A stretch of DNA of 64,000 bases, taken from NCBI GenBank assembly GCA_022563395.1, contig JADFNM010000001.1, positions 334,342 through 398,341 on the forward strand, read 5' to 3'. Of the stretch, positions 29,593 through 55,909 are shown piece by piece; within the stretch, counting starts at the first letter, position 1; each line of letters begins with the position of its first letter. The position numbers and the translations under genes were made by a program. Source of the DNA: Patescibacteria group bacterium. Its GTDB lineage: Bacteria; Patescibacteriota; Minisyncoccia; Minisyncoccales; UBA10102. The notes under the pieces were generated by a model, which saw nothing but the letters and a program-made list of their open reading frames with translations, was not told where the DNA came from and did not search any database.

Positions 29593-29594
29593 GG

Positions 29595-34114: not shown

Positions 34115-34145
34115 CTTTGTTTTTACCTTTACCTTGACAAGAAAA

Positions 34146-34212
34146 CTTAACGAGATTAAGTTCTCCTAAATCTCGTTTAGGACATATTCGGGAATCCTTA
34201 ATTTCATTTAGG
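34146..34212. repeat. REP-like units inside the GC-rich block
   Basis: 'cttaacgagattaag' (34146-34160), 'cctaaatctcgtttagg' (34165-34181), 'ccttaatttcatttagg' (34196-34212). Confidence 0.75.
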
Positions 34213-34226
34213 AAATATGCGAAAGG

Positions 34227-34255
34227 TTGACAAACCTACTTTTGGAGGGTATAAT
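34227..34255 (+). promoter_or_regulatory. Consensus sigma70-type promoter
   Basis: TTGACA (34227-34232), a 17-nt spacer, then TATAAT (34250-34255). Followed by the Shine-Dalgarno 'AAGGAGGTG' 7 nt before the ATG at 34321. Confidence 0.7.
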
Positions 34256-34320
34256 ATAGGCAGATCCTGAACAAGTGAATATTCGCGAGTTTGGGATACT
34301 CAAAGAAAGGAGGTGCCGAA

Positions 34321-35085: not shown

Positions 35086-35134
35086 AGAGAAATCTCAAAG
35101 GAGGGCTTCTTTTTATTTTTCAAGATTATTACTT

Positions 35135-40387: not shown

Positions 40388-40399
40388 AGACAATCAGAC

Positions 40400-40990
40400 C
40401 TAACCAGGCAAGAACTGAGGATAGAAGCCGCTGTAGGGAGAGAAGCCGCTGTAGGGAGAGAACTGAGGGTAGAACTGAGGGTAGAAGCCGCTGTAGGGAG
40501 AGAACTGAGGGTAGAACTGAGGATAGAAGCCGCTGTAGGGAGAGAACTGGGGGTAGAACTGCGGGTAGAACTGCGGGTAGAAGCCGGTGTAGTAGAGAGA
40601 CTGGGCATAGGGAGAGAACTGAGGGTAGAACTGCGGGTAGAAGCCGGTGTAGTAGAGAGACTGGGCATAGGGAGAGAACTGAGGGTAGAACTGCGGGTAG
40701 AAGCCGATGTAGGGCAAGAACTGAGGGTAGAACTGAGGGTAGAACTGCGGGTAGAAGCCGATGTAGGGCAAGAACTGAGGGTAGAACTGAGGGTAGAACT
40801 GAGGGTAGAACTGCGGGTAGAAGCCGGTGTAGTAGAGAGACTGGGCATAGTAGAGAGACTGGGCATAGTAGAGAGACTGGGCATAGGGAATGTCTGCTTG
40901 AACTACACCGAAAAACCCGAAAAAGAAAAGAGAGCAAAGTATTCCTACTCCTACCAAACACAATGCAAGCTTCCTTTTGCGACTAATCAT
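40400..40990 (-). CDS. Secreted low-complexity protein built from 19 FYPQ repeats
   Basis: Signal peptide 'MISRKRKLALCLVGVGILCSLFFFGFFGVVQA'. The ATG (40988-40990) overlaps the upstream TGA as ATGA. The TAG stop lies 12 nt before the next ATG. The mature part uses only D, I, P, Y, A, Q, S, L, T, G and F. Confidence 0.7.
   Translation of the reverse strand: MISRKRKLALCLVGVGILCSLFFFGFFGVVQADIPYAQSLYYAQSLYYAQSLYYTGFYPQFYPQFYPQFYPQFLPYIGFYPQFYPQFYPQFLPYIGFYPQFYPQFSPYAQSLYYTGFYPQFYPQFSPYAQSLYYTGFYPQFYPQFYPQFSPYSGFYPQFYPQFSPYSGFYPQFYPQFSPYSGFSPYSGFYPQFLPG
40409..40888. repeat. Tandem 12-nt-period DNA repeat with higher-order units
   Basis: 'gaactg(a/c/g)gggta' is iterated ~20 times. It is interspersed with 'gaagccg(c/g/a)tgtag...' blocks, and ~60-nt higher-order units are repeated exactly. 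All six frames are open across it. Confidence 0.9.
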
Positions 40991-41394
40991 GGTTCAACTA
41001 CGATGATTTCGCCTGTGACATACGGCATCAAATGGTCGTGCATACCCCATTCACCCACCTTTTCAAAAATAAACCCCCATTCTTCGCCTGGTCCAATGGT
41101 TTGTTTGGGGTCAAACTCTGAATACAGTGTATGCGTAGGATGAATATCCGAAGCCGGCCAGTGCCATTCATCAGTTTTGTTCACAAAACGAACATATGTA
41201 CCTTTTTTTACCTGCAGGGTTTGTGGGGTAAATCCATCTTCTGTAATCATAATAACATCTCCAGACGAAAAAAGGAGAGGGAAGGAAGGTATGCTTATTC
41301 CTCCTTTCCAAAATATTCCTCCTGCAATTACCAGTATACCAACTCCTCCGGCAAAAAGCACCCGCGAGAAGAAAAATGACTTCGATGGAATCAT
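40987..41394 (-). CDS. Membrane-anchored cupredoxin-like domain protein
   Basis: 135 aa. TM 'VLFAGGVGILVIAGGIFW', then 'FTPQTLQVKKGTYVRFVNKTDEWHWPASDIHPTH...GEWGMHDHLMPYVTGEIIVV'. This is the cupredoxin-like beta-sandwich pattern with a His/Met-rich site. Confidence 0.6.
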   Translation of the reverse strand: MIPSKSFFFSRVLFAGGVGILVIAGGIFWKGGISIPSFPLLFSSGDVIMITEDGFTPQTLQVKKGTYVRFVNKTDEWHWPASDIHPTHTLYSEFDPKQTIGPGEEWGFIFEKVGEWGMHDHLMPYVTGEIIVVEP

Positions 41395-41510
41395 GCAGTT
41401 AAAAAAATGTATTTCTTTCCCACAAAAAACAAAGCTGGCTTTTAGTATCGATACGCTCTTTCATTATACAAAGTTATGATAAAATTGGGAATACAGGGTT
41501 GTGATATACA

Positions 41511-42776
41511 TCATAAAACACGTTTGTTTAGGCAAGATTCGACATACGCCGGTTCGCTGTTGGCACAATACTCACGCAGAATTTCTTCCGAATAATAGTT
41601 CTCGTTATTCCCAAAGCCAATATTACTATAACAGGCAGCTTTTGCTTCTTCTTCAACTTTGCGGCAGAGTTGAAAAGGATTCTTGTTGCTCAGTAATGGA
41701 TCGAACAATACCCAGTAGCGAACAGTGCCGGCATAGCAAAATCGTACATATTCCTTATCGGAATATGCCCTACAAGATTCGATAAGATCAGTAATCTTTT
41801 CTTCATTACTTAAGTCTGGCTGGTTGAGTAGTTGAATAAGAAGAGAGTTTGCAGCAGAATCATAGCATCGTCGAATATAATCGTCTCTTTTAACCGGATC
41901 GGGTTCCGGAATGTTGTCGCAACCCTTAAAGTCATCTGCAGAATCAGCAGTATGGGTCCTTCCCGGCACATGACTGTAGCAATGCCCGCGGAACTTTTCT
42001 TCAATGTCGCCGCAAGGATAATAAAGATCATCCTCACTCCACACATTTTCGATGTTATGATTAAGATCACCATCTACACTACCGGGCTGGGAGCCGGCAT
42101 GAAAAACTCCACTTAAACAAAGCTGCACATCGTCGCTCAAAAATTCATCGCTCAATCCATCACACAATGCAAGTGTCTCTGTAAGGGGGACGTCTGCAAA
42201 AATAGCCATACCGTGCCCAAACCAATGCAAACACTGGTTAATGTAATATTGCGTCTCTTGAATTAACGGATTCTCCATACATGCCTCCCTAATTACTGTT
42301 GGACGTTCTTTGATCGGCAAATATGATAAAGCAGTCTCAATGACACCGTGGTAACATGCAAAAGCTCCAAAGCCATCACATTCTACGAGGGCCTTCCCGA
42401 TCCGAGATTTAAGATCCGTATCTGGTCCCCCATAATACTTGATTCCGTGATTTCCGATGGTATGGCCAAATGGATGGCTATAGGAAAGAAGATAGGTAAA
42501 CTCCTGAGAAAGCGGCTCAATCACCTGTAGTGCGGCGGGTATTCCTTTCTGTTCCGCAAGGAAAATAAGAACTTTATCTATACATTTAATTTGCTCTGCC
42601 TCGTCTTCAAACGTAAGGCATGATCTTACTTCAGCAGAGTATGTAGCAGCATCAAAGGTTTTATTGCTCTCACCCGTCTCGTCTGGTGTTGCTGCAGAAG
42701 TATAAGCTGCCACCCCAAAGACGACAAAGAACGCTAGAAGGTAAAGATATCTAATATGGAATAATACATTCTTCAT
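41511..42776 (-). CDS. Cys-pair/His-motif repeat protein, paralog 8 (pair D), function unknown
   Basis: ATG at 42776 forms an ATGA overlap with the upstream stop. TM 'YLYLLAFFVVFGVAAY'. Motifs 'FGHTIGNHG', 'ACYHGVIE', 'CLHWFGHGM', 'LYYPC'. Many C-x10-15-C pairs. Confidence 0.8.
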   Translation of the reverse strand: MKNVLFHIRYLYLLAFFVVFGVAAYTSAATPDETGESNKTFDAATYSAEVRSCLTFEDEAEQIKCIDKVLIFLAEQKGIPAALQVIEPLSQEFTYLLSYSHPFGHTIGNHGIKYYGGPDTDLKSRIGKALVECDGFGAFACYHGVIETALSYLPIKERPTVIREACMENPLIQETQYYINQCLHWFGHGMAIFADVPLTETLALCDGLSDEFLSDDVQLCLSGVFHAGSQPGSVDGDLNHNIENVWSEDDLYYPCGDIEEKFRGHCYSHVPGRTHTADSADDFKGCDNIPEPDPVKRDDYIRRCYDSAANSLLIQLLNQPDLSNEEKITDLIESCRAYSDKEYVRFCYAGTVRYWVLFDPLLSNKNPFQLCRKVEEEAKAACYSNIGFGNNENYYSEEILREYCANSEPAYVESCLNKRVL

Positions 42777-43972
42777 AATTCTTGCGAACGCTGTCCCAGA
42801 CAAACTTCATGAAAAGGACCACCCAACTCTTTACATAAAGTAATACGATTCTGAATACCTAAAAATTCCTCTATTACGTCTCCAAGCCTCTCGTGGCAGT
42901 ATGCCCGGAAAGCGTCGGGCGCCGTATTGCAAATTGCAAATCCCACCTCGGGAGTTGAGTTTGTATCGGCGATAACAGTCTTTGCTGCTCCAGAAATACA
43001 GAGACTGATCATTTCTTCATTATATCCTTCACTACAGCTTTCTGCAACGAACAAGGGATCATTGGGAGTTGCGAGAAATAAGCTTTCTCCGATCCGCGCC
43101 GTACATTCCCTTTGATAGTCTGACGGCACCCGTCTACATGTTGCAAATGCCTCCTTTGGATTAAGGGTTCTCCCATACGCAAGATATCCTGCAAAGATAA
43201 AGCAAGATCTCCTATACGTGGCATCGACCTGAACACAAAAGCTGGCTATATCCTGCGGCATGGCTGATCGCTGAATCTGCTCGGGAGATAGAGTACTTAA
43301 AACCATAAACACCGCATGCCCGCATTGAAACCTTCCCTCTTCATCTTGTAACACATCACATCGATCAAGGTTTGCCTGGAGGTCTGTTCCAAACAAATCA
43401 GTGATACCATGGCCAAAGCCATGGTAACAAGCCGAGACTCTCTTTTTATCTCCGGCATAATCCGGAGGATTACAAAAACCATCCACACTCTCAATACTAT
43501 TTCCGAGGGTAAGATATGTGTGGCCGACTCCGTTAAAACAACCTCCTTCGCATGCACTAGAACAATGAGTAAGAATATCAAGGCCATCATAACCTATCAT
43601 TATTGCAGCCTGCCCCAAATCATGGCCCAAACTATGACAAGGTGCTCCCTGTAAAACCATACCCTCTTTTGTTGCAATATAGGAATCGAATGCCTCTGAA
43701 ATTACTGCGAGACCATGCTCCTTCATGCCATCAAAAAATGCACGCTGATAACATGCATATCGGGGAGAACGGTCAAACTGACCCTCAAAAGGAAATACTT
43801 CGCAAGAACGAAACCATTGAAGAGCGCTCAAAGTATCGTGCCTCTGAGACTTTGGTAGAGGAGGAGAAGATTCAAAATAGCTATCGGACAAAAAACCCAA
43901 AACAATGCCGCCTACCATTACTACGGCTGCAAACATGAACAATGTCTTTTTTTCACTAAGTATGGCGTGCAT
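42773..43972 (-). CDS. Cys-pair/His-motif repeat protein, paralog 7 (pair D), function unknown
   Basis: TM 'LFMFAAVVMVGGIVLGF'. Motifs 'CHSLGHDLG', 'GCFNGVGH', 'CYHGFGHGI'. Repeated pairs such as 'FCVQVDATYRRSC' and 'TCRRVPSDYQREC'. Confidence 0.8.
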   Translation of the reverse strand: MHAILSEKKTLFMFAAVVMVGGIVLGFLSDSYFESSPPLPKSQRHDTLSALQWFRSCEVFPFEGQFDRSPRYACYQRAFFDGMKEHGLAVISEAFDSYIATKEGMVLQGAPCHSLGHDLGQAAIMIGYDGLDILTHCSSACEGGCFNGVGHTYLTLGNSIESVDGFCNPPDYAGDKKRVSACYHGFGHGITDLFGTDLQANLDRCDVLQDEEGRFQCGHAVFMVLSTLSPEQIQRSAMPQDIASFCVQVDATYRRSCFIFAGYLAYGRTLNPKEAFATCRRVPSDYQRECTARIGESLFLATPNDPLFVAESCSEGYNEEMISLCISGAAKTVIADTNSTPEVGFAICNTAPDAFRAYCHERLGDVIEEFLGIQNRITLCKELGGPFHEVCLGQRSQEL

Positions 43973-44050
43973 AGATGCGCTTTTTATTCTGCCAAAACCC
44001 CTCTTTTTACAACACGTGCTGTCATGGGATACTCACTATTTTTTTGAACT

Positions 44051-45148
44051 CTAACGATACGATTCAAGGGCTGAGTAACAAAAGTCTGCATCTTCTGATG
44101 TCTCCATTTGCTCGCAAAATAGTTCAGGGGCATTGCTTCCAAAATCAACCGGATTTTGATAAAAAGTGAGAATAATGCCTTTCACACACTTTCTAAAATA
44201 CTGCTCTCCCAAAGAATGACATGCTTCCCGTTTTGCCTTCATACTATATGGCTCATAGGCAATGCTTCCATAAACCTGGTGCTTACAGGTCTTTTGAGCC
44301 TCTTGATCCGGGACTTCCCCACATATTGGGAGCACATCCGGATAGGAAATCCCGGCAGAAATTGCCCTTTTTGCCACGTCAACATAACAGGTCCAGCGAT
44401 ACTCTTCAGGGATAATACCGCACGGATAGAATGGATCTTCCTCTTTATAAAAACGAGGGGGAGGAACTTCGAAATTACGATTGGCTAACTCCATAAAAAC
44501 ACCTGCCTGACACCAACGACGTTCGCGCAGTGCAAGAGAAGTTTCGTCGCATGCTTGAAGGGGCGAGATCAAATCATTTCTATCAAAGTCTGCCAGACCA
44601 TGGCCAAGACCATGAAGACATTCCTCAAGAAAATTTGGTTTTATTGCCTGAAATGAATGGCAAAGCCTACTCCCCTCTTTTACAAATTCATCAATAGTCC
44701 AATTATTAACGATGTGCAATTCCGAAAATAATCCATGAAGATACCCCCACGAACATAACGGACTTAATGACTCAAACGCCTCCTCAAACCCTCTCTGTGT
44801 AACGGCGGCCCGACTGATAGTATGTCCCAGACTATGACAACCACCCAAGGTTACGTACCGTTCATCATATAAGAACTGAAGTGCTGTTTGGGCTTGAGCG
44901 GAACCAAAACGGAGCACAATATTCGAAAGCTCTTTTTGCATGCAAAGCGTATCTTCAATCCTCCGATTCTCCTCTTGACCATCTGGGGGACGGCATTGCT
45001 CAACAATGACTTGTGCATACGACTCAACCGACTCCTGGGAACGAAAAGAAGAGGACTTTAAGAGTATTCCTAAATAAAACAAAAAACCTCCAATAAAAAA
45101 AATAAATGCAAAACCGAGCACCACTATAAAAAACAGGTTCCGCTTCAT
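44051..45148 (-). CDS. Cys-pair/His-motif repeat protein, paralog 6 (pair B), function unknown
   Basis: TM 'LFFIVVLGFAFIFFIGGFLFYLGIL'. Motifs 'GCHSLGHTI', 'CSWGYLHGL', 'CLHGLGHGL', 'CQAGVFMEL', 'DPFYPC'. Confidence 0.8.
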   Translation of the reverse strand: MKRNLFFIVVLGFAFIFFIGGFLFYLGILLKSSSFRSQESVESYAQVIVEQCRPPDGQEENRRIEDTLCMQKELSNIVLRFGSAQAQTALQFLYDERYVTLGGCHSLGHTISRAAVTQRGFEEAFESLSPLCSWGYLHGLFSELHIVNNWTIDEFVKEGSRLCHSFQAIKPNFLEECLHGLGHGLADFDRNDLISPLQACDETSLALRERRWCQAGVFMELANRNFEVPPPRFYKEEDPFYPCGIIPEEYRWTCYVDVAKRAISAGISYPDVLPICGEVPDQEAQKTCKHQVYGSIAYEPYSMKAKREACHSLGEQYFRKCVKGIILTFYQNPVDFGSNAPELFCEQMETSEDADFCYSALESYR

Positions 45149-46263
45149 TAAAAAAGTGACGCACGAGCGTATTCAACTGCTCCAAAACAACCTTCTCGAT
45201 CGATTCTGTCTGGCAAGGAGTTACAAAGCATTTCTGCTTGTTGAGACTGTTGCGCGAACGAATAATGCGTTGCAGCGGTAGAAGTACACAACGTCCGGTA
45301 TGTTGGATCGTACGTTACAAGTTTGTTGCATTCTTCAATAACTCGCTTTGGCTCACTGCTAAAATCCTGATTAATTGCAGAGCCCATTGCTCCAAAACAT
45401 TCCCGCAAGGTATCTTCCGCTGTGAAGTATAAACAGTATTCAGCACTTTTATCTACATCCTTCCATCCAAAATTATTTCGAACATGAAAGATGTGCTCTC
45501 GTACGCAGGCGGCCTCATACTGTTGGGGAACGCTGTTGCAGGGATAATACGGATCCTCCGAATACAACTGGTCGAGTGCACCCTCCCTCTCGTGCCTTCG
45601 CACCACATTCTCCATAGAAACCCCATCGTAACAATAAAAGCTAGCGAGTTTATCCAGAGACATACGATCGCAATCTTCATAAGAAGGAATGAGATCATAT
45701 CCTCGTACCACCATAATAGCATGCCCAATACCGTGAATACAGGCCGTAGTAGTTGTTCCGCTATGGGGGAGACTGAGGCATCCGTCGGCCAACTCCTCCA
45801 GGAGTTTTTGATTATAGCCGCTTTGCCGAATCGCCTCCAAAACAACTCCGTGGTAACATCCAAACTTAAAAAATGAATCACAGATGTTAAATGCCCCATA
45901 CCCCAGTTTTAAAAATGCAGCTTCGCCAATGACATGAATGAGTTCATGGTCATCCGCAGGCTCGTCAGAATAGACATCTCTCAAAAACTGCCGCGCTCTC
46001 TCATATCCGTATGCTTTGGCCCACTCTTTAAGCAAACGAACCTGTTCAAGCGAAGCAAGTGATGAATAACGAAACTTTTCGCCGTCAAACGGAGGAATGG
46101 ACCATTTGTTCAAAGGTTCTTCTTGTGATTGTGCGCTCTCCTTTTCAAATTCTGTCCCACCTGCAAAAAGTGGCAGATGATTTTTGCCAAAAAGAAATGC
46201 CTGAAAAATCATAACGCCAAGCAATATGTATATAAGGCTTATTCCGATAGATTGTATCTTCAT
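45148..46263 (-). CDS. Cys-pair/His-motif repeat protein, paralog 5 (pair C), function unknown
   Basis: TM 'IGISLIYILLGVMIFQAFLF'. Motifs 'HELIHVIGE', 'GCYHGVV', 'CIHGIGHAI', 'CYDGVSMEN', 'DPYYPC'. Confidence 0.8.
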   Translation of the reverse strand: MKIQSIGISLIYILLGVMIFQAFLFGKNHLPLFAGGTEFEKESAQSQEEPLNKWSIPPFDGEKFRYSSLASLEQVRLLKEWAKAYGYERARQFLRDVYSDEPADDHELIHVIGEAAFLKLGYGAFNICDSFFKFGCYHGVVLEAIRQSGYNQKLLEELADGCLSLPHSGTTTTACIHGIGHAIMVVRGYDLIPSYEDCDRMSLDKLASFYCYDGVSMENVVRRHEREGALDQLYSEDPYYPCNSVPQQYEAACVREHIFHVRNNFGWKDVDKSAEYCLYFTAEDTLRECFGAMGSAINQDFSSEPKRVIEECNKLVTYDPTYRTLCTSTAATHYSFAQQSQQAEMLCNSLPDRIDREGCFGAVEYARASLF

Positions 46264-46293
46264 GCTGGTAGCACGTTTGTAAAGGCAAAGTCT

Positions 46294-47343
46294 CTAAAAA
46301 TTTTGCTGCGACCGAAATGACTGAATTCTATTCAGACATGCGCTTTGATCTTCGATGTTGAGAAACGTTGCGCACAATTGCTCAGCATAGGCGAATCGTT
46401 TCGTCATTGAGAAATTGGTTACCGCGCCAAAAATACAAAAGCGGAAATATGCACCACTTTTTCGACAGTGTTCAATAACCGCTTCCGGATCATCATACAA
46501 TACTTCGGCATCTTGACTTCCTATCATACTAATACATTCTTGGCGGGTTTGTTCCTCCTTAAAAGAAAGGCAAAATGCCACCATTTCTTCAAGGTTAAAT
46601 CCGAAATTCCGCTGCAGAAATCCGATATGATTGCGCACGCACACGGCTTCGTACTTCTGAGGAATACTATTACAGGGATAGTAGGGGTCTTCATCGCTTC
46701 CATAGGGTTCGGATTCTGAGTCTATCATTGAACGGGTAATGTTTTCCATTGTTACACCGTCTTGGCACCAAAAACTTTCATCCGAGTTCAAAAACCGTTC
46801 GCACTCCTCATATGCTTTAAGAAGGTTATATTGTTTTATAACCATAATAGCATGCCCAAGACCGTGAAGACAGTTGCCAGGAAACGGCGAGCTGCGCCTA
46901 CAAGCTTCCCAAAGACCCTCACCTAAAAGTGGTTGTTCTCCATGGAAACGAATCGCAGCAAGCGCCGCTCCGTGAAAACATCCAAAGTTTAAAAACGTAT
47001 CGCAGCGTCCAAATCCGTCAAGACCTAATTCTTTAATTGCAATTTCGCCTAGTTTGTGACTCAGATCATGTTTTGATGGGGGTTCATCCGGATATGCTGA
47101 CTTCAGAAAACTCCAGACCGTATCAAAATTTTGGATGTTGCTCATATCATCTAACGCTCGGATTTGCATTTCATGCGACAACGTGCGAAAACGTTCTATC
47201 GAAATGCTGGATTTTTGCGAAATCTCCTCAGGGATGATACCCCCTCCTTGACTATAAAAATTATGCAGACCAAAAACCACCATACCCACAACCGAAAAAA
47301 AGGTGAAAAGGATTAAGGCCTTCTTCACTATAATTCTACGCAT
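46294..47343 (-). CDS. Cys-pair/His-motif repeat protein, paralog 4 (pair C), function unknown
   Basis: TM 'ALILFTFFSVVGMVVFGL'. Motifs 'HDLSHKLGE', 'GCFHGAA', 'CLHGLGHAI', 'CQDGVTMEN', 'DPYYPC'. Confidence 0.8.
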   Translation of the reverse strand: MRRIIVKKALILFTFFSVVGMVVFGLHNFYSQGGGIIPEEISQKSSISIERFRTLSHEMQIRALDDMSNIQNFDTVWSFLKSAYPDEPPSKHDLSHKLGEIAIKELGLDGFGRCDTFLNFGCFHGAALAAIRFHGEQPLLGEGLWEACRRSSPFPGNCLHGLGHAIMVIKQYNLLKAYEECERFLNSDESFWCQDGVTMENITRSMIDSESEPYGSDEDPYYPCNSIPQKYEAVCVRNHIGFLQRNFGFNLEEMVAFCLSFKEEQTRQECISMIGSQDAEVLYDDPEAVIEHCRKSGAYFRFCIFGAVTNFSMTKRFAYAEQLCATFLNIEDQSACLNRIQSFRSQQNF

Positions 47344-47447
47344 ATATCATCGTATTATAGACACTTTTCATGCATGTAAACAAGAGTCAATACAAATACA
47401 TACCACGTATTTCTGCTCGCAGCTGAATCTATTACATCCTGGCATTA

Positions 47448-48623
47448 TTATGGTTTTGAAGGTTTCAAAGCCGATTGGCATATCGCCAACTCTGCTCCGA
47501 CCATAACGTTACAGAATTGCTCAGGGGCGTCTTTATCAAAATTGATTACATTAGAAAGGGTATGAACAACGCCTTTGATACATTTCTTGGAGTACGCATC
47601 CCCCAGTGAACGACAGTTCTCAAGCCTCCCTTCCATATCGGGTCCTCCCCACGTGATACTCCCATAGAGCTGACTCATGCAATTCACAATCGCCCTTTTA
47701 TCAGGAATTCTTTGGCACAATGACACTACATCGGGGAAGGGAACGTCTGCATAAATTGCCCTAGGTGATACATCAATATAGCACGCCCAACGATATTCTT
47801 TTGGAGTAATATCGCACGGATAGAATGGATCTTCCTCTTTATAAAAATACGCCTTTTCTCCTTGGTTGGGCCGAGCCAACTGCATAAACACACCTGCTTG
47901 ACACTGCTGGCGGTCCTCAAAATCTTCTGAAGCTTTATCGCATGCTTTTAGGGGAGCAATCAAATCTTTGGGGTTAAAATCCGTAAGACCGTGCCCAAGA
48001 CCATGGAAGCAATTCCTAAGAAATTTTTTGGTTTCGCTTTCACCCTGTATACGACATGCCTCTCCGCCTTTTGCTGCGAATATATCAATTGTCCAATTTT
48101 GAGTGCTTTGGAGGGCGAAAAAAACTCCGTGGAGATAACCCCAGCTACAAAACGGATCTAATGCTCCCAAAGCTTCATCAATTCCTTTTTGAACGACTGT
48201 TACCCGGCCCACAAGATGCGCAATATTGTGACACTCGCCGAGATTTACACGACCATCTTCATAAAGTGTCCCAAGTGCTACTTGAGCCTCGGCGGTTCCA
48301 AAATCCGTCACAATCTCTTCTAGTACATTCTGTAGGCATCTATCCTCATCTATATCTAAATCTCCGGGTCTATCATCAATACACTTATTTACTATGAGTT
48401 TAACTTGCGACTCTGATAATTTTTTGGGGAAATGACTAAAAAATAGAGTGAATTCCGAAAATATTTTTTGGCTCCCAAACAACCCAACTACAAAAAAAAG
48501 GAGGAAGAAAGCGGCTAACACTATAATGAGTAACCTGCTGCTAAAATGTCTACCACCTTTTACTTTCAGCGTTGAAAAATGGTCTAATTGTATACGCATA
48601 TATATAAAATTCTGTATCGTCAC
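47448..48623 (-). CDS. Cys-pair/His-motif repeat protein, paralog 3 (pair B), function unknown
   Basis: The track start is GTG at 48623, giving a GTGA overlap with the upstream stop. An alternative ATG lies at 48599. TM 'LLIIVLAAFFLLFFVVGLFG'. Motifs 'ECHNIAHLVG', 'CSWGYLHGV', 'CFHGLGHGL', 'CQAGVFMQL', 'DPFYPC'. Confidence 0.8.
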   Translation of the reverse strand: MTIQNFIYMRIQLDHFSTLKVKGGRHFSSRLLIIVLAAFFLLFFVVGLFGSQKIFSEFTLFFSHFPKKLSESQVKLIVNKCIDDRPGDLDIDEDRCLQNVLEEIVTDFGTAEAQVALGTLYEDGRVNLGECHNIAHLVGRVTVVQKGIDEALGALDPFCSWGYLHGVFFALQSTQNWTIDIFAAKGGEACRIQGESETKKFLRNCFHGLGHGLTDFNPKDLIAPLKACDKASEDFEDRQQCQAGVFMQLARPNQGEKAYFYKEEDPFYPCDITPKEYRWACYIDVSPRAIYADVPFPDVVSLCQRIPDKRAIVNCMSQLYGSITWGGPDMEGRLENCRSLGDAYSKKCIKGVVHTLSNVINFDKDAPEQFCNVMVGAELAICQSALKPSKP

Positions 48624-49777
48624 TGTTCATCAAAACAAAAGGCGGCTTCTGATGGACCAAACATATTACAAAAACTCTCTTTCCCGCCTTCACCATGCAG
48701 CTTTTCAACATTTTGTCCAAGATACACAAAACAAACACGTTGGAGTTCTTCTTCTAGTACCCCGCACAAAGAACCCCCCAGTGATCCTGAAGGATCGGTA
48801 ACAAAACTTGAGAAAATCGCCCCCTCAACACACGCTTCTTTTTGATGCTGTTTACCAAATTTGCATGCCTCCCAAATTTTCTCTACTCGGCCTTGAGAAA
48901 GAAAAAATAGGTCTGCTCCTATAACAAAGTTGCATTCTTTAAAAAGAAGCGGTGATATACTCTCACAAGTTTGAAATGCTTTTTGGATATTATTCGATCT
49001 CTTCAATTCAAAACCTCCCACACTCTTTAAACATAAATCGGCATATATGCCAGGCAAAGTCTGACAAAAGCGAGGAATGTCTTGAGGTATTTCAAGGCGT
49101 GGATGACTTTCTGTGGGAGCATCAAAAATCTCCATAAAAACCCCAGTAGCACACTCATTTTGGGCATTCGTGTTATCAAGAAGATCGCATAAGTTTAGTG
49201 TCTTCACAAGGTCAAACTGAACCATACTAGCAAGCCCGTGCCCCAATCCATGATTGCAGGCAGTAAGATCTTGACCGGGCAGTGGGGAAGGAGAAAGTTT
49301 CTCACACACCGAAGGAAGATCATCTAGTAAGTTGGGATTAAGACGTAATACTCCGAGAGCCGCGCCGTGCGTGCATCCAAATCCGCACTTTCTTGTACAG
49401 CTTGCAAGAACTTCACCCGCATCTTCTTGTAACTCAATACCAAGCTCTCCGACCACATGACCAAGATTATGACAGGAAACTCTGGAGGCAACCCCTCCCG
49501 ATTCCTCATTCAAATATTCAAGCTCACTCATCATTGCATTCACACCATATCTAGAAACAAGCGGTCGGCTCTTCTCCCTGAAACAGCGAAAATAATGAGC
49601 CGTGTTGGTGTCTTCACCACATTCCTTCAAAACAGATGTGAGCTCGAAAGAAAGATCCTCTGCTTGGATGTCTGTACTTGACTCTCCGGAAAGAAAGGAC
49701 ATCATTCCCGCCACAAATCCACCTCCAAAAAATATAACAATGCTTATTTGAAAAATGAATTTTTTTATACGAGCCAT
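48620..49777 (-). CDS. Cys-pair/His-motif repeat protein, paralog 2 (pair A), function unknown
   Basis: TM 'FIFQISIVIFFGGGFVAGMM'. 20 Cys. Motifs 'SCHNLGHVVG', 'GCTHGAA', 'CNHGLGHGL', 'CATGVFMEI'. Confidence 0.8.
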   Translation of the reverse strand: MARIKKFIFQISIVIFFGGGFVAGMMSFLSGESSTDIQAEDLSFELTSVLKECGEDTNTAHYFRCFREKSRPLVSRYGVNAMMSELEYLNEESGGVASRVSCHNLGHVVGELGIELQEDAGEVLASCTRKCGFGCTHGAALGVLRLNPNLLDDLPSVCEKLSPSPLPGQDLTACNHGLGHGLASMVQFDLVKTLNLCDLLDNTNAQNECATGVFMEIFDAPTESHPRLEIPQDIPRFCQTLPGIYADLCLKSVGGFELKRSNNIQKAFQTCESISPLLFKECNFVIGADLFFLSQGRVEKIWEACKFGKQHQKEACVEGAIFSSFVTDPSGSLGGSLCGVLEEELQRVCFVYLGQNVEKLHGEGGKESFCNMFGPSEAAFCFDEQ

Positions 49778-49779
49778 GT

Positions 49780-50967
49780 TTAATTATTCAGCTGGGTAAG
49801 ACAGTGTTTTTGAAACGAATCGGGAATAACCGAAGATTCGCAAAACTGTTCCTGTTTTTGCGGCCCGTGTCGCTCTTTAACATACAAACCAAGTAATTCA
49901 AAACATGTTGGCTTAAAACCTTCTTCGATAATCACGCATAAAGAAGCTCCATGCCGTTCTGAGTCGGATATGACGCTCGAAACCAACGCTCCCTCAAGGC
50001 ATGCACGATACGAGGCTGGGGAGGGCGCCTTTTTGCAGGAACGAACTATATCTTCTCTCTCTCCCTCAAAAACAAAGTAAAAGTTTTGGCCGGTAGAAAC
50101 GATACACGGGCGTTGTAAGGATGAAGGCGCCTCCCCACATGTTGTAAATGCCTTTTCCTCATCCCTCGATCTCCCATACTCGTGTACCCCGGCAGTAACA
50201 TAGCATACTTCTGCATACACCCCCCAGAGCGTACTGCAGAAATCGGGTATGTCTTCAGGAAACTCGAGAAGAGGATGCTCAAAACTTGAAGGTTCGTAGA
50301 GTTCCATAAAAACGCCAGTACCACAATCTTTTCTTTCCTCCTCCTTTTGTAGGGAGTCGCAAAGCTCAAGGGATCTTTTAAGTTTGTATCCTGCAATGGT
50401 GGCGACGCCGTGGCCAAGCCCGTGAAAACATGCCGAGCGAGATCCACGATTCAAATCATCATCTGGTATTGCAGCACAAAGTTTCGGAAGTTCGTCAAGC
50501 AGGTTGGCTCCACGAGCAAGAAAACCCTCGACTACTCCATGATAACAACCATATGTACAGAGAGACGAACAGCTTGAAATCGTTGAATCCATATTCTTAG
50601 AATGCAGACCTCCTACCTGACCAATGGCATGAAGAAGATCATGGCACTGTGTAATGGCTCCGGCTTGACTAGTATTGCGAGCGGTGAACATCTGTTCAAC
50701 GGCATTAATAAAGGGAGAGATTCCGTACGTTTTTACCGCCTCTTCGATATGCTTTCTAAAACAAAGTATGCTGCGAGACCGGTCACTTTCCGGTTTGCAT
50801 ATGTTTTGAACGTTTATGATCTGAGAAGAAATATCATCTTGATAATTCTCAGAGAAAGAAATCCGTGAATTGTACAGCGAAACAAAAGATAGTCCAAAAT
50901 GGACATTCAGAATAATCCCGAACAAAAAAACAAAAGTTAAAACTATGCCCAAAACAGATGGTCTCAT
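49780..50967 (-). CDS. Cys-pair/His-motif repeat protein, paralog 1 (pair A), function unknown
   Basis: ATG at 50967; the track start at 50976 is TTG. TM 'VLGIVLTFVFLFGIILNV'. 20 Cys. Motifs 'QCHDLLHAIG', 'GCYHGVV', 'CFHGLGHGV', 'CGTGVFMEL'. Confidence 0.8.
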   Translation of the reverse strand: MRPSVLGIVLTFVFLFGIILNVHFGLSFVSLYNSRISFSENYQDDISSQIINVQNICKPESDRSRSILCFRKHIEEAVKTYGISPFINAVEQMFTARNTSQAGAITQCHDLLHAIGQVGGLHSKNMDSTISSCSSLCTYGCYHGVVEGFLARGANLLDELPKLCAAIPDDDLNRGSRSACFHGLGHGVATIAGYKLKRSLELCDSLQKEEERKDCGTGVFMELYEPSSFEHPLLEFPEDIPDFCSTLWGVYAEVCYVTAGVHEYGRSRDEEKAFTTCGEAPSSLQRPCIVSTGQNFYFVFEGEREDIVRSCKKAPSPASYRACLEGALVSSVISDSERHGASLCVIIEEGFKPTCFELLGLYVKERHGPQKQEQFCESSVIPDSFQKHCLTQLNN

Positions 50968-51071
50968 ACAAACCAAAAATAGAAATGTGTATTCCCCCTA
51001 CGTCAGTACCCCTATTTTATTCTTTCCTTAAGGCGGGCTTTTCTGCAAAGGAAATGTAAAAAAAGCATCTT

Positions 51072-51647
51072 TTACTGAGGGGCTGTTTCTGGACTACCCA
51101 CCATCTCCATATATCCTACGATATTTCTGGATTCGCCACAGGAAATACCATACCATCCCGGCCCATTTGGAAACTGGGTATCAATGCTCTTTTCCTCGCC
51201 TGCTGCCACAAAAACATTTTTATCACCAACTAAAATTAGATGATCTACTGAAGCCGTGCTCTTAAACGTAAATGGCAAACCTTTTAGGGGGCGTACAACA
51301 AGCGGTGTGAGTACACAGCCTTCACCGATTTCCATGGTATTTGTTTCTACGGTCAACCTACCCATCTGGGCATTGAAAGCTGTCTTTTCCTCCTCAGAAG
51401 CATTTTCTGTTGGCAACAAAGACAATTCCCCTATCAGAGGAACACTGTCCCCACGAGTCCGAGTCGGTGATGCTATCTCTGGAGAAACTGAAGAGGATGG
51501 AGCCGGTTGCCCTATCTCCCCTTCTCCTGTTTTCTTTTCTTCTTGCTGCTGGAATTGCTTGAACGAAATACCAACAACATTCCCCAAAATAAGAGCCGCG
51601 CCCAGGATTAAAATAATGATGATAACTTTCTTTGTTTTACTTCTCAT
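51072..51647 (-). CDS. Membrane-anchored cupredoxin-like domain protein (degenerate site)
   Basis: TM 'VIIIILILGAALILGNVV' and a Pro/Ser/Glu linker. C-terminal 'LPFTFKSTASVDHLILVGDKNVFVAAGEEKSIDTQFPNGPGWYGISCGESRNIVGYMEMV' carries His...Cys...Met in cupredoxin-like order. Confidence 0.5.
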   Translation of the reverse strand: MRSKTKKVIIIILILGAALILGNVVGISFKQFQQQEEKKTGEGEIGQPAPSSSVSPEIASPTRTRGDSVPLIGELSLLPTENASEEEKTAFNAQMGRLTVETNTMEIGEGCVLTPLVVRPLKGLPFTFKSTASVDHLILVGDKNVFVAAGEEKSIDTQFPNGPGWYGISCGESRNIVGYMEMVGSPETAPQ

Positions 51648-51790
51648 GGTACTTTTGTTATTGAATTATCCGATTCATACATCGAACAAATAGAGAATAC
51701 TCTCCGTATTGTGCTTCTATCCATCTGTTCGACCGCCAGATTACATGAAAACATCTTCATTCCATTCATGGTGTTCATAATTATACATAA

Positions 51791-52369
51791 TCACATCTCT
51801 TTCTTTCTTTTGGAATAAAATACTGTGCTCCCGATTATCCCCAGTATAGCACCTCCTCCAAATGTAATAACCCATAGAAAGTTACGCAAGTCAATAGTTT
51901 CCTTATTTTTATATACAGGTTCAAAGGGCGGGACCACGGAAAAAGAGAAAGAGGTCTCTGCCAGTGTTTCCTCCGTACCTTCAAAACTCAGTGTCGCATT
52001 ATATGGTCCTTCTTTTGGGAAAGTCGCGACCAACCGCGTACTCCCCGAAACCAATTTTGATTCATCCAGTGATGAAACTAATATTACCGATCCACCACTC
52101 TTTGCAAACCGCACAAACAGGTAATCAAATGGGGTGCTCCCCTGGTTTGTAGCATCAAGGAGACGGAACGTAAAAGAAACTGCCTCACCGCTGTATATCT
52201 CGGGGGTATCATATGCAAATTCAACTGTATAGTCGCCAACAGTTTGAATTTGCTCCGTATCAAAGCCATGCCCCCAAGAAAAAAGTGGGGTAAGGGTCAC
52301 AAAAAATACTCCGAATACGGCTGGAAGAAAAGGTAGGAAGTGTTTGAAAAAAAATACTGTTTTTCTCAT
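51791..52369 (-). CDS. Secreted beta-rich protein with C-terminal TM anchor, function unknown
   Basis: ATG at 52369; the track start at 52387 is GTG. Signal-like 'FLPFLPAVFGVFFVTLTPLFSWG' followed by 'HGFDTEQ...'. C-terminal TM 'LWVITFGGGAILGIIGSTVFY' and a 'KRKKE' tail. Confidence 0.65.
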   Translation of the reverse strand: MRKTVFFFKHFLPFLPAVFGVFFVTLTPLFSWGHGFDTEQIQTVGDYTVEFAYDTPEIYSGEAVSFTFRLLDATNQGSTPFDYLFVRFAKSGGSVILVSSLDESKLVSGSTRLVATFPKEGPYNATLSFEGTEETLAETSFSFSVVPPFEPVYKNKETIDLRNFLWVITFGGGAILGIIGSTVFYSKRKKEM

Positions 52370-52471
52370 GAAATAATATGTAAACACAAAGTAAAGATGC
52401 TGGAGCTACATGATATTCTATCATATTTTCAGATGGCAAACAAACTCATCAAGAAGACCACTTCGTTATAT

Positions 52472-53194
52472 TTAAAGACAAAAAGTTGCAGTATAGAGTG
52501 GGGCAAATTCTTTAGGAACAGAACAGACTATTATCATAATTACTTTCTGCCCATCTGGAGTTATGACAGGAGCGCGTGTATCTATTCCCCCTTTTTTCCC
52601 GTCCTCCGTTGTTCTAAAAACTCCACAGTTAGTTAATTCTGAACTGTTTTGTGGATCACTAAGTTTCTGACACAGTATGGTGTCAATTTGGGGTATAAAT
52701 TGATCTGTAAAGACACCTGCCATCAATGATATGGCCCGTGTTTCGTCCACTACAGTTCCTAAAGCAAATGTCCATCCTCGTATATACGTTGGGGTCTTAG
52801 AGGAAGAATCTTCTACATAGAGCACTGTAAAAAATCTATTGTCTTTATTCCAGCTTCCCACATATTCATTGCCGCCGCCACTATTTAATGGAGCTCGCTG
52901 AAAAACAACTCCTTCTGGTAAAAACTCTTCCCGAAATACGTTCTTGATAAACTGCATTATCGTTTGTCTGGCTTCATCGTCCAATTCCGAACTCATAACC
53001 ATGCTGGAGATTTCAGGTTCTTTGGGTTCTCCGACGCTTCCTGTGCTAAAAAAATATTCTGGGATGAAAAAAATACTGAGCACAATTCCTGCCCCTACCA
53101 ATACAAAGACCTTAATACTCTTTAAAAAGTTGTGACTATACATTAATTGTTTCATATTCTTCATAAAAACTCCGCCATAAGGCAGGAGCAACAT
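52472..53194 (-). CDS. Membrane-anchored hypothetical protein
   Basis: 240-aa ORF. TM 'IKVFVLVGAGIVLSIFFIPEYFF'. No motif recognised. Confidence 0.6.
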   Translation of the reverse strand: MLLLPYGGVFMKNMKQLMYSHNFLKSIKVFVLVGAGIVLSIFFIPEYFFSTGSVGEPKEPEISSMVMSSELDDEARQTIMQFIKNVFREEFLPEGVVFQRAPLNSGGGNEYVGSWNKDNRFFTVLYVEDSSSKTPTYIRGWTFALGTVVDETRAISLMAGVFTDQFIPQIDTILCQKLSDPQNSSELTNCGVFRTTEDGKKGGIDTRAPVITPDGQKVIMIIVCSVPKEFAPLYTATFCL

Positions 53195-53230
53195 ATGGGT
53201 GTACGTACTGCTTTTGTATGTGAAGTAAAG

Positions 53231-55909
53231 CTAAAACGTGTCATTTTTTTCAACAATAATTATTTTCTGGTTCAACTGCACGTTAAAGAGTGTTTGGATT
53301 GCTCCACTCGGCCATTCAACTTTAACTACGTCAGCACGAGAAGATATTCCCAGCCCAAATGTTTGCCACAGGCTGTTCTGAGAAAGAAAAGAGGAGCCGT
53401 TGATTATCTCTCGTATTTGATATTTTTCCCCCGTTGTAATGGTTATTCGTGCTCCGATACCATCTCTATTACTCTTTGTTCCGACGAGCTGAACGGTCAG
53501 CCAGTTATTGCTGTTGCCCTGATTCTGGTAGAGACGGTGTGAGGATTTCTCTTCAAGATGGCTTGAAACTACTATAACATCGATAAATCCATCGTTATTA
53601 TAATCTGCAAACGCTGCTCCCTCTTTTGCATCACTACCGTATATTCCTTCTTGTAAAGACACTTCGGTGAATACTCCCTCTCCGGTATTTTTATAAAGTT
53701 TATCGGTCACATTCATCTGAAAAGCGATCGTCCTCCTGCTGGGCACTCCCCCCGACAGTCCGGCGGGGCGGGCTTCAACAGTTACGCTCCCATTTATGTC
53801 ATAGAGATCAAGATTGCCATCGTTATCATAATCCAAAAACCCAACCGCCCACCCCAAAGATGAACTATCTGCCGTTCCCGTACGTTGTGCCACTTCGGTG
53901 AAGGTATCATCCCCATTGTTCTCCCAGAAATAATTTGGGCCTGTATTGGTAACATATAAATCTAGGTCACCGTCGTTATCATAGTCCCCCACCGTTACGC
54001 CCATCCCTGTGCCCTTCAAACACAATCCGGCTTCTTGTGTTACATCCGTGAATGTGCCATCTCCGTTGTTCCGATACAAAGGGCTGATACTGGCATCGGT
54101 TGCAATAAATAGGTCCGGCCTTCTATCATTATTGTAGTCAAACCATATTGGCTGGAACGCTATTTTCCAGGGACCATTTCTAACCGTAAAATCTAACCCT
54201 TCACCTGGGGTAAACCCCGAACAATCAGCAATGCCCATTACCCCCGATTCTTCTGTTGTATCTGTAAAGGTGCCATCGCCGTTATTGCGATAGAGAATAT
54301 TTGGCTCCGATATGTATGTCTCGAATGCTATTCGCTCACCATAGTTCGCAACATAAATATCTACATATCCATCATTATTATAATCGGCCCATGCTATTCC
54401 GGTTCCACGGTACGTATCTTCTATCCCTGCAGCACTACTCACATCCGTAAAGGTACCATCACAGTTATTGCGGTAGAGGGTGTCCGATCTTTTATCAAAT
54501 CGATTTGATACATATAAGTCAATACACCCATTATTATCGTAGTCTGCGAAAGCTCCTGCCCAAGAAATAGGGGCATGGCCAATAATCGCATTGGGCTTAA
54601 TTCCGGCTTCTTTTGTTACGTCCGTGAATGTGCCATCTTTGTTGTTCCGATACAGTTTATTCCCGTCTCTTCCCCCCAGCATAAGAAGATCGAGATATCC
54701 ATCGTTATTATAATCAGCCCATGCAACTCCGGTTGACTCGCCTCCTTTTTTTATCCCAGAATCTTTTATCACATTAACAAAAGTGGGGGTAGAGTTAGAA
54801 ATTAACGTACCTTCGACTACTAAAATAAAGGTCCCCCCCGCTATTCCGGTTCCTACAACAGCCATAAATAGGATGATGGCAAGTTTTTTGGAGAAATACT
54901 TTCCAATGACAAAAGTTGAAAAAATGCTGTAGGCAGGTAGGGTAATTAAAAGAGCTGCGGCGACACCAAGTGATAATCCGGCCTGGAGCAAAGCCAAGAC
55001 AAGAATAAGATCAACAAGCATAGGTATGGGGAGGGCGGTTCCAATGAGTGCCGCAGCTCCAATCAAAAGAAACTGATTCTGCGTTGGGTCAATGAAATTT
55101 TCAAGAGGAAACAGGGTAATGATGGTAGCCCCCAATACTCCAGCAAGAAGCATGAGGGGAACAACCAGAACTGCCAGTCTTGCTGTTTGATAAACGAATG
55201 ATGTTATTCCTGCCCGCAGTGCAAAAAACAAGCTTTCTTGTTCCCATTGAGTTTTTCCTTTCAGAACGAGGAAGGAGACGTTGCTTTTCTGCGTGAGAAA
55301 TCTTACGACAAAAGGAATAACCAAAAAGATGAGAAAGAGCGTTGCAATAACCTTGGTAACTGCTAACTCAAAAGGGAACACGGTAAAAACAATGCTGAGA
55401 GCAACGATATTCAAGGTAGGAGAAGCAAACATGGCAGAGAGCGTCGTCTCAAGACTCACTCCCCTTTTCTTCATTGCAACTCCAACCGGGGCAACACAGT
55501 TGGCGCAAATGCCCATCGGAGCTCCTATGAATATTCCAATCAAAGAGCCTCCGAGGCCCCTTACTGAAAAATATCTCCGGAGTGCCATCAACGGAGTCAA
55601 TAATGCGAGGAGTGCTCCTCCAAGAATGATACCAAAACTCATGCCTACCCTGTTTGCATATATCCAATCCAATGTGGTTTTGCCAATCACCACAAATGTA
55701 CTTTCTGGCTTTTGAGCATCAATCTCTACAATTTCATCTTTGGTGATGCTCCCCACGTTGCGTTCAAGCAGAGTTCCTTGTTGTGCTCTCTTTGCCTCAT
55801 ACAACAATTCCGGATACCGCGAAAACGCCCAAAAAGAAAGGCCTATGAACATAATAATCAGGATGTGTACCCCTAACCTTTTTTTGGAAATGTGAATCCT
55901 TTCTGGCAT
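53231..55909 (-). CDS. Fusion protein: polytopic permease-like domain + seven FG-GAP/VCBS repeats + ASPIC/UnbV-like C-terminus
   Basis: 892 aa. The N-terminal ~370 aa hold at least 8 hydrophobic helices and 'GAPMGICANCVAPVGVAMKKRG', which resembles the YraQ/ArsP 'predicted permease' pattern. Seven 'xADY(N/D)NDGxxDLxV' repeats follow. C-terminus 'NRDGIGARITITTGEKYQIREIINGSSFLSQNSLWQTFGLG'. Confidence 0.8.
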   Translation of the reverse strand: MPERIHISKKRLGVHILIIMFIGLSFWAFSRYPELLYEAKRAQQGTLLERNVGSITKDEIVEIDAQKPESTFVVIGKTTLDWIYANRVGMSFGIILGGALLALLTPLMALRRYFSVRGLGGSLIGIFIGAPMGICANCVAPVGVAMKKRGVSLETTLSAMFASPTLNIVALSIVFTVFPFELAVTKVIATLFLIFLVIPFVVRFLTQKSNVSFLVLKGKTQWEQESLFFALRAGITSFVYQTARLAVLVVPLMLLAGVLGATIITLFPLENFIDPTQNQFLLIGAAALIGTALPIPMLVDLILVLALLQAGLSLGVAAALLITLPAYSIFSTFVIGKYFSKKLAIILFMAVVGTGIAGGTFILVVEGTLISNSTPTFVNVIKDSGIKKGGESTGVAWADYNNDGYLDLLMLGGRDGNKLYRNNKDGTFTDVTKEAGIKPNAIIGHAPISWAGAFADYDNNGCIDLYVSNRFDKRSDTLYRNNCDGTFTDVSSAAGIEDTYRGTGIAWADYNNDGYVDIYVANYGERIAFETYISEPNILYRNNGDGTFTDTTEESGVMGIADCSGFTPGEGLDFTVRNGPWKIAFQPIWFDYNNDRRPDLFIATDASISPLYRNNGDGTFTDVTQEAGLCLKGTGMGVTVGDYDNDGDLDLYVTNTGPNYFWENNGDDTFTEVAQRTGTADSSSLGWAVGFLDYDNDGNLDLYDINGSVTVEARPAGLSGGVPSRRTIAFQMNVTDKLYKNTGEGVFTEVSLQEGIYGSDAKEGAAFADYNNDGFIDVIVVSSHLEEKSSHRLYQNQGNSNNWLTVQLVGTKSNRDGIGARITITTGEKYQIREIINGSSFLSQNSLWQTFGLGISSRADVVKVEWPSGAIQTLFNVQLNQKIIIVEKNDTF

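Follow-up and report, generated by a model that had tools for sequence, protein, structure and literature searches.

A conserved Patescibacteria gene module that joins a His-rich cupredoxin without type-1 copper ligands to disulfide-rich α-solenoids, with a possible role in metal handling at the cell surface

A 64,000-nucleotide stretch of DNA, hereafter the window, belongs to a 671-kb contig of a metagenome-assembled genome (MAG) of the Patescibacteria, or Candidate Phyla Radiation (CPR), and all of its genes between 35 and 64 kb lie on the minus strand, separated by short distances or overlapping (Table 1). In transcription order, five genes of the alkaline-phosphatase/sulfatase superfamily are followed by a gene for an 892-aa (amino acid) permease fusion, by P240 and by NHIS, which encodes a protein with a predicted N-terminal histidine; then come P191, a second cupredoxin-like protein, eight paralogs referred to here as the array, the cupredoxin CUP, a repeat protein and a 1752-aa surface protein with TPR, CARDB and PA14 domains. 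A sequence-only reading of the window had pointed to CUP, P191, NHIS and the 892-aa protein as parts of a possible extracytoplasmic metal or redox module around the array. All four open reading frames (ORFs) were found on the minus strand at the positions it gave, together with the peptides it quoted. CUP, P191 and NHIS are each named 'hypothetical protein' by NCBI, and the 892-aa protein is named 'VCBS repeat-containing protein'. The core of the locus is a His-rich cupredoxin domain that lacks the type-1 ligands and a disulfide-rich solenoid with five conserved His, accompanied by P191 and NHIS as accessory proteins. As described below, the window can be read as one copy of a conserved module of outward-facing, membrane-anchored proteins, which looks specific to Patescibacteria and for which we infer a metal-binding mechanism; this reading as a whole is quite possible, if somewhat short of probable.

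Table 1. Positions of the genes and motifs discussed, in window coordinates
Feature	Position	Strand	Description
CUP	40987..41394	-	135 aa, membrane-anchored cupredoxin without type-1 ligands
CUP motifs	WPAS[DN]xHP[ST]H 41131-41160; HDH 41032-41040	-	conservation assessed over 123 domains
Array, eight TM-anchored paralogs	41511..50976	-	disulfide-rich α-solenoids, five near-invariant His (HxxxH, H, HxxGH)
Array paralogs 1-4	41511-42803, 42773-43972, 44051-45148, 45148-46263	-	
Array paralogs 5-8	46294-47343, 47448-48623, 48620-49777, 49780-50976	-	
P191	51072..51647	-	191 aa, membrane-anchored second cupredoxin-like protein
P191 residues	C111 51315-51317; C170 51138-51140; H136 51240-51242	-	
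NHIS	51791..52369	-	signal peptide, His34 (52268-52270), 8-strand Ig-like sandwich, C-terminal TM helix
NHIS alternative GTG start	52387	-	
P240	52472..53194	-	240-aa TM-anchored protein recurring at related loci
892-aa fusion	53231..55909	-	ArsP-type permease (~90-355), FG-GAP/VCBS propeller repeats, ASPIC/UnbV
CANC of 892-aa fusion	55496-55507	-	C135-A-N-C138
'YPQF' low-complexity repeat protein	40400..40990	-	196 aa, TM-anchored; module membership uncertain
Five alkaline-phosphatase/sulfatase-superfamily genes	63783-56039	-	Pfam checked for two; HMM from two matches first four

CUP begins with a transmembrane (TM) anchor, and its sequence matches identify the remainder as a true cupredoxin. 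The window protein itself reaches 23.3 bits (E 6.7e-5) against Pfam Cupredoxin_1 (PF13473), below the gathering cut-off of 27. Its orthologue at a related locus, L008, passes Pfam for this family (34.6 bits) and for Copper-bind (25.3 bits; cut-off 21.2), and four database homologues (P0016-P0019) carry precomputed PF13473 matches. A profile of 11 family members matches PDB cupredoxins over the full domain, the C-terminal cupredoxin domain of NirK at E 6.9e-10, amicyanin at 7e-7 and plastocyanin among them. Conservation over 123 CUP domains is concentrated in H85 (122), H88 (121), H119 (123), D120 (117) and H121 (123), and these four invariant His and one Asp lie at the same end of the fold. 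They are not the residues of a type-1 copper site: when CUP is aligned to amicyanin, an Asp occupies the Cys92 position in 117 of the 123 domains and the positions of His53, His95 and Met98 are variable. The family also carries a 7-residue WPASDxHP insertion relative to type-1 cupredoxins.

CUP has His on both sides of the position that aligns with the type-1 Cys, as well as a His-rich segment after that of the first ligand, which resembles the arrangement in the domains of NirK and multicopper oxidases. In alignments of hidden Markov models (HMMs), the HDH triplet of CUP sits on the 'H-C-x' segment of amicyanin and the 'H-C-H' segment of NirK, and the HPxH motif falls on the His-rich segment; in NirK 9cck_A, the residues H119-D120-H121 align to 'YHCH', of which CUP lacks the Cys, and HPxH aligns to 'HFHGTH'. 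In NirK and multicopper oxidases, it is at these flanking and His-rich positions that the ligands of interface copper are found. The possibility that CUP is a blue-copper electron carrier was ruled out by the Asp at the Cys position and the variability of the other type-1 positions. A literature search on CPR cupredoxins returned nothing relevant.

P191 is likewise TM-anchored. It has no Pfam match of its own, and its homologue at locus L005 reaches only 17.3 bits for Cupredoxin_1. A profile of 23 sequences, with members drawn from related loci, nevertheless aligns to CUP in hhalign with 93% probability (E 2.9e-7, 78 columns), and its best PDB matches are all cupredoxins (4hcf at 1e-3, plastocyanin at 7e-3); a smaller profile of four sequences had given 29% against CUP and E 0.39 against the PDB. 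By these profile matches P191 is cupredoxin-like, and the proposal that both proteins flanking the array belong to this fold is thus borne out. The type-1 Cys (C170) is kept in 19 of 20 P191 sequences and the first His (H136) in 15 of 20, while the downstream His and the CxxH...M loop ligands are missing and Met is not conserved. An additional invariant Cys, C111, stands at the start of the domain; the two Cys are 59 residues apart in the cupredoxin fold and do not form a CxxC redox motif. With this incomplete ligand set, P191 as a blue-copper electron carrier was also rejected. Both proteins are sequence-detectable homologues of the type-1 cupredoxin fold of amicyanin, plastocyanin, NirK and multicopper oxidases; they differ from its members in lacking the full His...Cys-x(n)-His-x(n)-Met set and in being single membrane-anchored domains. 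The ligand-like residues that the sequence-only reading had quoted therefore do not stand as blue-copper sites, since the Cys position of CUP holds Asp and Met is unconserved in both proteins, and this is the one correction to its description of the genes.

The eight array paralogs are 20-25% identical to the first of them, and related loci carry up to 10. The family has 63 database matches, most of them without a source name; those with a name are 'hypothetical protein' and derive for the most part from MAGs of the Patescibacteria group, one fragment bearing the label Pseudomonadota. No Pfam domain was found in 65 members, nor a sequence relative in the PDB at E<=10. The AlphaFold2 (AF2) model, built from a 65-sequence alignment, is a confident all-α solenoid with a predicted local distance difference test (pLDDT) score of 93 and a predicted template modelling (pTM) score of 0.84. 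Foldseek returned no significant match for it, the best (E 0.019, template modelling score about 0.2) being to ARM/HEAT repeats. Five His are nearly invariant over 277 domains: H110 in 276, H114 in 275, H152 in 274, H193 in 274 and H197 in 272. They occupy equivalent 'C-x-H' positions of consecutive repeats, in model helices 103-123, 147-159 and 185-201, and from the geometry of the modelled solenoid they should stand in a row on one of its faces.

The Cys of the array behave in another way. In the same 277 domains, C142 and C150 are both present in 172 and both absent in 105, C295 and C313 are both present in 208 and both absent in 69, and in neither pair does one Cys occur alone. Because they are gained and lost strictly in pairs, these Cys are best explained as disulfides, one per repeat, and each array protein would need roughly 8-10 of them. 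A role for the Cys as metal ligands was ruled out on the same grounds, so that they drop out of the metal-handling, His- and Cys-rich array proposed from the sequence alone, leaving the His.

The conservation of the gene neighbourhood was surveyed with a scan for the CUP motif over one genome per GTDB species, which yielded 366 loci; the 79 that were fetched are the best-scoring relatives and look like CPR-type MAGs. Many of the MAG records bear the labels 'uncultured Gammaproteobacteria', 'Methanosarcinales archaeon' or 'Saccharibacteria', which are probably automatic mislabels. Within 10 kb of CUP, array genes were found at 73 of the 79 loci, an ORF fusing CUP to an array domain at 48, NHIS at 22, P191 at 19 and P240 at 5, counts that are lower bounds, since ORFs were called mechanically and few seed sequences went into the family HMMs. 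Label-free clustering of all genes from 88 loci gave NHIS (24 loci) and P191 (21) as the commonest accessory families, against 9 loci for P240 and 4 for the FG-GAP protein, and NHIS directly adjoins a standalone CUP gene in 11 loci. A 20-kb interval is about 2% of a CPR genome, and the 24-28% co-occurrence of the accessory families is therefore more than ten-fold above chance. The link between CUP and the array, present at 92% of loci and reinforced by the fusions, is of the strongest kind that genomic association can show. Conserved co-occurrence across genomes had been set beforehand as a test of the sequence-only reading, and the clustering that it observed in one genome is confirmed as lying far beyond chance.

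Individual loci give the same picture from two directions. A protein search with CUP led to loci L001-L003, in which CUP homologues lie beside array genes, NHIS, P240 and FG-GAP/ASPIC genes, and the same gene sets recur at loci L005-L008, which were reached from the array side. L006 and L007 share the order P240, CUP–array fusion, array genes, P191, further array genes and CUP; L005 reads DsbA, P191 and array genes; and L008 reads CopC(+CopD, YtkA), NHIS, CUP, array genes, HTTM and sulfatase. In the last of these, a 964-aa protein (4820-7714) with a CopC domain and weak CopD and YtkA matches is encoded immediately upstream of the NHIS homologue; the HTTM gene is vitamin-K carboxylase-like and is situated further downstream with the sulfatase-family gene. 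Homologues of P240, for which no Pfam family was found, are present in L002, L006 and L007. The 481-aa ORF of L002 (3780-5225) joins a CUP domain to an array-family domain, and together with those of L006 (3310-4794) and L007 (4532-5983) it has the layout N-terminal TM anchor, CUP domain, array solenoid. The window itself carries the unfused forms only. Fusion at 61% of loci suggests that the two domains act on each other directly.

The architecture of these fusions recalls EfeO, in which an N-terminal Cupredoxin_1-type domain likewise precedes an all-α domain with conserved metal-type residues in an extracytoplasmic protein. The array domain differs from that of EfeO in that it gave no Peptidase_M75 match at E<=1 in 65 members and no match to the imelysin fold, in being a disulfide-rich solenoid with no relative in the PDB, and in that no EfeU or EfeB partners were found.

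NHIS has a predicted signal peptide ending in ...LFSWG|HGF. A word-indexed search returned near-identical copies only, and an exhaustive HMMER search was needed to uncover the family, which comprises 376 cluster representatives at E<=1e-3, nearly all of 160-190 aa; the named database members are 'hypothetical protein'. An alignment of 147 members shows His at the His34 column in 98%; position -1 is occupied by Ala (82%), Gly (11%) or Ser (6%), together 99%, position -3 is small or aliphatic and position +2 is Gly in 79%. This is the pattern of an AxA-type signal-peptidase-I site that is predicted to leave His as residue 1, in agreement with the earlier proposal for the window protein. Among the polar residues, only Tyr47 and Tyr53 are conserved, and these probably lie in the core. 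In the AF2 model (pLDDT 90), an Ig-like sandwich of eight strands (38-146) is followed by a TM helix (161-191). NHIS has no Pfam family (among 62 members at E<=1, the best family was matched by 9), and a PDB profile search gave weak filamin-type Ig matches only; the copper proteins PmoD, CrdA and FetP are among the best Foldseek matches to the PDB.

Two further occurrences touch on this family. In a 6060-aa database protein (P0082), 21 stretches match the NHIS sandwich domain (E 2.2e-39). The fold is thus also used as an internal, repeated unit, a setting that cannot offer an N-terminal His. A multi-pass membrane family of ~475 aa with no Pfam match, found at L001 (3510-4940) and L003 (5318-6739) and absent from the window, carries His straight after its signal peptide ('A|HGFGQ', 'A|HAFGQ'). 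Its gene lies between CUP and a second small Cupredoxin_1-type gene (L001 3009-3506, L003 4713-5111), and its product may be a transporter that itself bears a predicted N-terminal-His site.

The layout of NHIS had suggested proteins of the YcnI or CopC type, and this comparison holds for the architecture and fails for homology. In Bacillus subtilis YcnI, a signal peptide precedes a mature chain that starts with His, forms an extracellular β-sandwich and ends in a C-terminal TM helix; the protein binds Cu(II) with Glu50 and Trp137 as co-ligands (PMC8424229). NHIS has the same succession of elements as YcnI (DUF1775, PF07987), and at L008 it directly follows the CopC(+CopD, YtkA) protein, mirroring the position of ycnI after ycnJ in the ycnKJI operon of B. 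subtilis. However, the window protein gave no DUF1775 match at E<=1, the family was not among the 25 top families for 62 members, and no YcnI chain appeared in the PDB profile search or among the top 50 Foldseek matches. NHIS has no conserved counterparts of the Glu and Trp co-ligands, and its usual partner is a His-rich cupredoxin with a solenoid array rather than CopCD. With respect to CopC (PF04234), NHIS has no Pfam match, reaches chain 5icu in the PDB at E 1.3 only and has no second conserved His. Membership of NHIS in DUF1775 or CopC was thus ruled out by the Pfam, PDB profile and Foldseek searches.

Another parallel in design is offered by the mono-histidine-brace 'anglerase' domains Ang-1 and Ang-2, which are also membrane-tethered Ig-like sandwiches with an invariant His1 and poorly conserved surrounding ligands. 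The Ang domains form part of fusions with HupE/UreJ-2 permeases in Pseudomonadota and Actinomycetota, and they have been proposed to capture metal ions (PMC12537917). NHIS, in contrast, ends in one C-terminal helix, lacks a Pfam match and is encoded at Patescibacteria-type MAG loci beside cupredoxin genes.

The 892-aa protein joins an ArsP-type permease to FG-GAP and ASPIC domains. Pfam places ArsP_1 (PF03773) on residues 92-354 with 52.7 bits (cut-off 32.3), followed by seven FG-GAP_3 stretches and UnbV_ASPIC, and NCBIfam gives weak matches to SaoE (37.6 against an equivalog cut-off of 325) and to the SO_0444 Cu/Zn-efflux family (31 against 300). The ArsP family is marked by a CSC motif, to which a role in binding soft metals has been attributed (10.1101/2022.07.06.499078). 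The N-terminal 360 residues thus resemble the ArsP, SO_0444 and SaoE proteins in domain match and membrane Cys pair, and differ from them in carrying CANC instead of CSC and in being fused to an FG-GAP/ASPIC ectodomain. The CANC pair (C135-C138) noticed in the permease-like domain was substantiated: it is invariant in two homologues with the same fusion, one in Gottesmanbacteria (L025) and one on a plasmid of Phaeobacter sp. G2 (L088, CP104103.1, 7779-10985), and the permease–FG-GAP fusion is found in plasmids of the marine Roseobacter group. As a firm member of the module the permease could not be upheld, with a relative of the 892-aa protein in 4 of 88 loci and its permease domain in only two of those four. 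It is loosely tied to the module and may belong to surface-polysaccharide biology instead.

On a background of very divergent sequences, the near-absolute conservation of the His and Asp residues leads us to propose that these clusters bind a transition metal, with copper as the best guess by analogy. The placement of the CUP residues, around the site of the lost Cys and downstream of that of the first ligand, points the same way, as does the fixed first mature His of NHIS, for which metal chelators provide precedent (PMC12537917, PMC8424229, PMC12362106); a His exposed by signal-peptide removal has been described as predictive of metal binding (PMC12537917). By analogy with YcnI and Ang-1, NHIS would trap or retain the ion at the membrane surface by means of a site of the mono-histidine-brace type. 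The His-rich CUP could then hand the metal to the solenoids or complete with them a shared site between the domains, and the divergent solenoid paralogs might use the metal to bind different extracellular substrates or to act on them by redox chemistry. Judged from the sequences, a metal module is a plausible reading. Copper leads the candidates on the strength of the fold family, of CopC/CopD as a neighbour at one locus (L008) and of the copper proteins that NHIS matches in fold, and the neighbouring permease, through its ArsP_1 domain and its weak match to the SO_0444 Cu/Zn-efflux family, adds a hint; the specific assignment to copper, made by analogy, is weak. A bolder version, in which His-rich CUP and five-His solenoid would build a hitherto unknown inter-domain and possibly multinuclear copper centre, so that the paralog arrays would represent a new class of extracytoplasmic copper enzyme supplied with metal by NHIS as a new mono-histidine-brace family, strikes us as rather unlikely. 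Of the dedicated cell-surface metal (Cu?) function put forward by the sequence-only reading, the module is supported by synteny and fusions and its copper part rests on analogy and the one CopC-CopD locus; its interpretation is thus partly supported.

Several observations weigh against a metal-handling module. Neither CUP nor P191 keeps a known copper ligand set. NHIS lacks a second conserved ligand, as no other His, Cys, Met, Trp or Glu is conserved in its 147 members, and its fold matches, at E ~1e-4, are weak and interspersed with generic Ig, MG2 and FN3 domains. CopCD adjoins NHIS in only one of 24 NHIS loci (L008), with a weak match in L070. The Phaeobacter fusion gene is part of a cluster for polysaccharide biosynthesis and export, beside a gene for a giant Ig-like protein. 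DsbA, VKOR and thioredoxin genes occur in a few loci, and glycosyltransferase-like genes (labelled by eye), pilin-like genes and giant surface-protein genes are frequent neighbours, all of which fits a general cell-surface island. Finally, the loci were chosen through CUP, and the co-occurrence frequencies are conditional on it.

Such an island, variable and devoted to the cell surface or to host interaction, would require no metal chemistry: the solenoids would be binding or adhesion scaffolds of an episymbiont and the β-sandwiches structural or assembly partners, with the His serving folding, pH sensing or non-metal catalysis. We consider this unlikely, yet it deserves to be taken seriously. 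The divergence of the array paralogs and their number per locus are in line with it, and so are the giant TPR/CARDB/PA14 and PKD proteins and pilin-like genes that adjoin the array in the window, L006 and L007, the glycosyltransferase-like genes (by-eye labels) between NHIS and CUP in three loci, and the weak resemblance of the solenoid to ARM/HEAT binding scaffolds alone. Binding surfaces normally vary, however, and here nine His and one Asp are nearly invariant across hundreds of very divergent sequences. The first mature His of the NHIS family also speaks against an island of this kind, as a His in this position is a metal ligand in all studied cases (PMC12537917, PMC8424229). In the three loci just mentioned (L010, L026 and L077), the protein encoded between NHIS and CUP is a multi-pass protein of ~525 aa (for example, L077 8277-9851), which resembles glycosyltransferases of the PMT/ArnT type according to a by-eye reading of its sequence and not a database match; genes labelled by eye as GT2-like, DegT-like and methyltransferase-like are located near it.

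The module might also handle a metal other than copper, either as a set of zinc- or iron-dependent enzymes or as an EfeO-like system of extracytoplasmic iron handling made of cupredoxin, helical domain and a P19/FetP-like sandwich. All-nitrogen/oxygen sites, formed of His and Asp with no Cys or Met, would suit zinc, nickel or iron equally, as well as Cu(II). The Pfam family matched by CUP is Cupredoxin_1, which includes the N-terminal domain of EfeO, and FetP is among the fold matches of NHIS. Proteins with an N-terminal His are known for nickel as well (DUF4198; PMC12537917). This alternative is nonetheless doubtful: no signal of Peptidase_M75/imelysin, Ftr1/EfeU or DyP was detected in the array proteins or the loci, and CopC/CopD is the only classical metal-homeostasis neighbour seen. 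Far less credible is a module for extracytoplasmic thiol-disulfide exchange, that is, oxidative folding, in which the two-Cys P191 and its neighbours would form the disulfides of the array. The demand for disulfides in the array proteins, the two invariant Cys of P191, the DsbA gene directly upstream of P191 in L005 and the VKOR and thioredoxin genes of L001 would all agree with such a function. DsbA-like genes occur in just 2 of the 79 loci and VKOR-like genes in 1, though, the spacing of the P191 Cys is not that of a CxxC motif, and the invariant His clusters, the N-terminal His and the CUP–array fusions would be left unexplained. An efflux or resistance operon for metals or metalloids, organized around the ArsP-type permease, is equally improbable: the ArsP_1 match above the Pfam cut-off, the weak SaoE and SO_0444 matches and the conserved Cys pair in the membrane domain, in a family marked by CSC, argue for it, but the permease is too rare at the loci, its NCBIfam scores are far below the equivalog cut-offs and its closest homologue outside the CPR resides in a polysaccharide-export cluster.

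Around the module, the window contains genes whose relation to it is less clear. The start of the 'YPQF' repeat protein overlaps the stop codon of CUP by 4 bases. Nearly the whole protein is made up of 'YPQF'/'YAQSLY' repeats encoded by tandem DNA repeats (period 12/54), several frames are open on both strands across this segment (40400-40990), and the only matches of the protein, in L005-L007, are of low complexity. Upstream of the module, the five tandem TM-anchored paralogs of the alkaline-phosphatase/sulfatase superfamily may be phosphotransferase-like rather than true sulfatases, because one of them reads 'TLPSQ' where sulfatases carry C/S-x-P-x-R; sulfatase-family genes also adjoin the module in L008, L034, L057 and L062. 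On the other side, positions 28000-40400 have a G+C content of 0.50-0.56, compared with 0.40-0.46 in most of the remaining window, and hold two giant surface proteins, one of 1327 aa (PKD/Ig) and the one of 1752 aa (TPR/CARDB/PA14), adjoined by two pilin-like N_methyl genes (28553-29592).

Recognised metalloenzymes are very few in Patescibacteria, whose genomes are tiny. The module described here occupies 5-15 kb in hundreds of their species, as counted from the 366 loci among GTDB species representatives, its three core families are all unannotated and it looks undescribed. If the His clusters bind metal, these families (CUP, the solenoid and NHIS) would become candidate metalloproteins. The cupredoxin–solenoid fusions are ready-made constructs for biochemistry, and a metal-binding module, if true, would provide a handle on the surface chemistry of these episymbionts.

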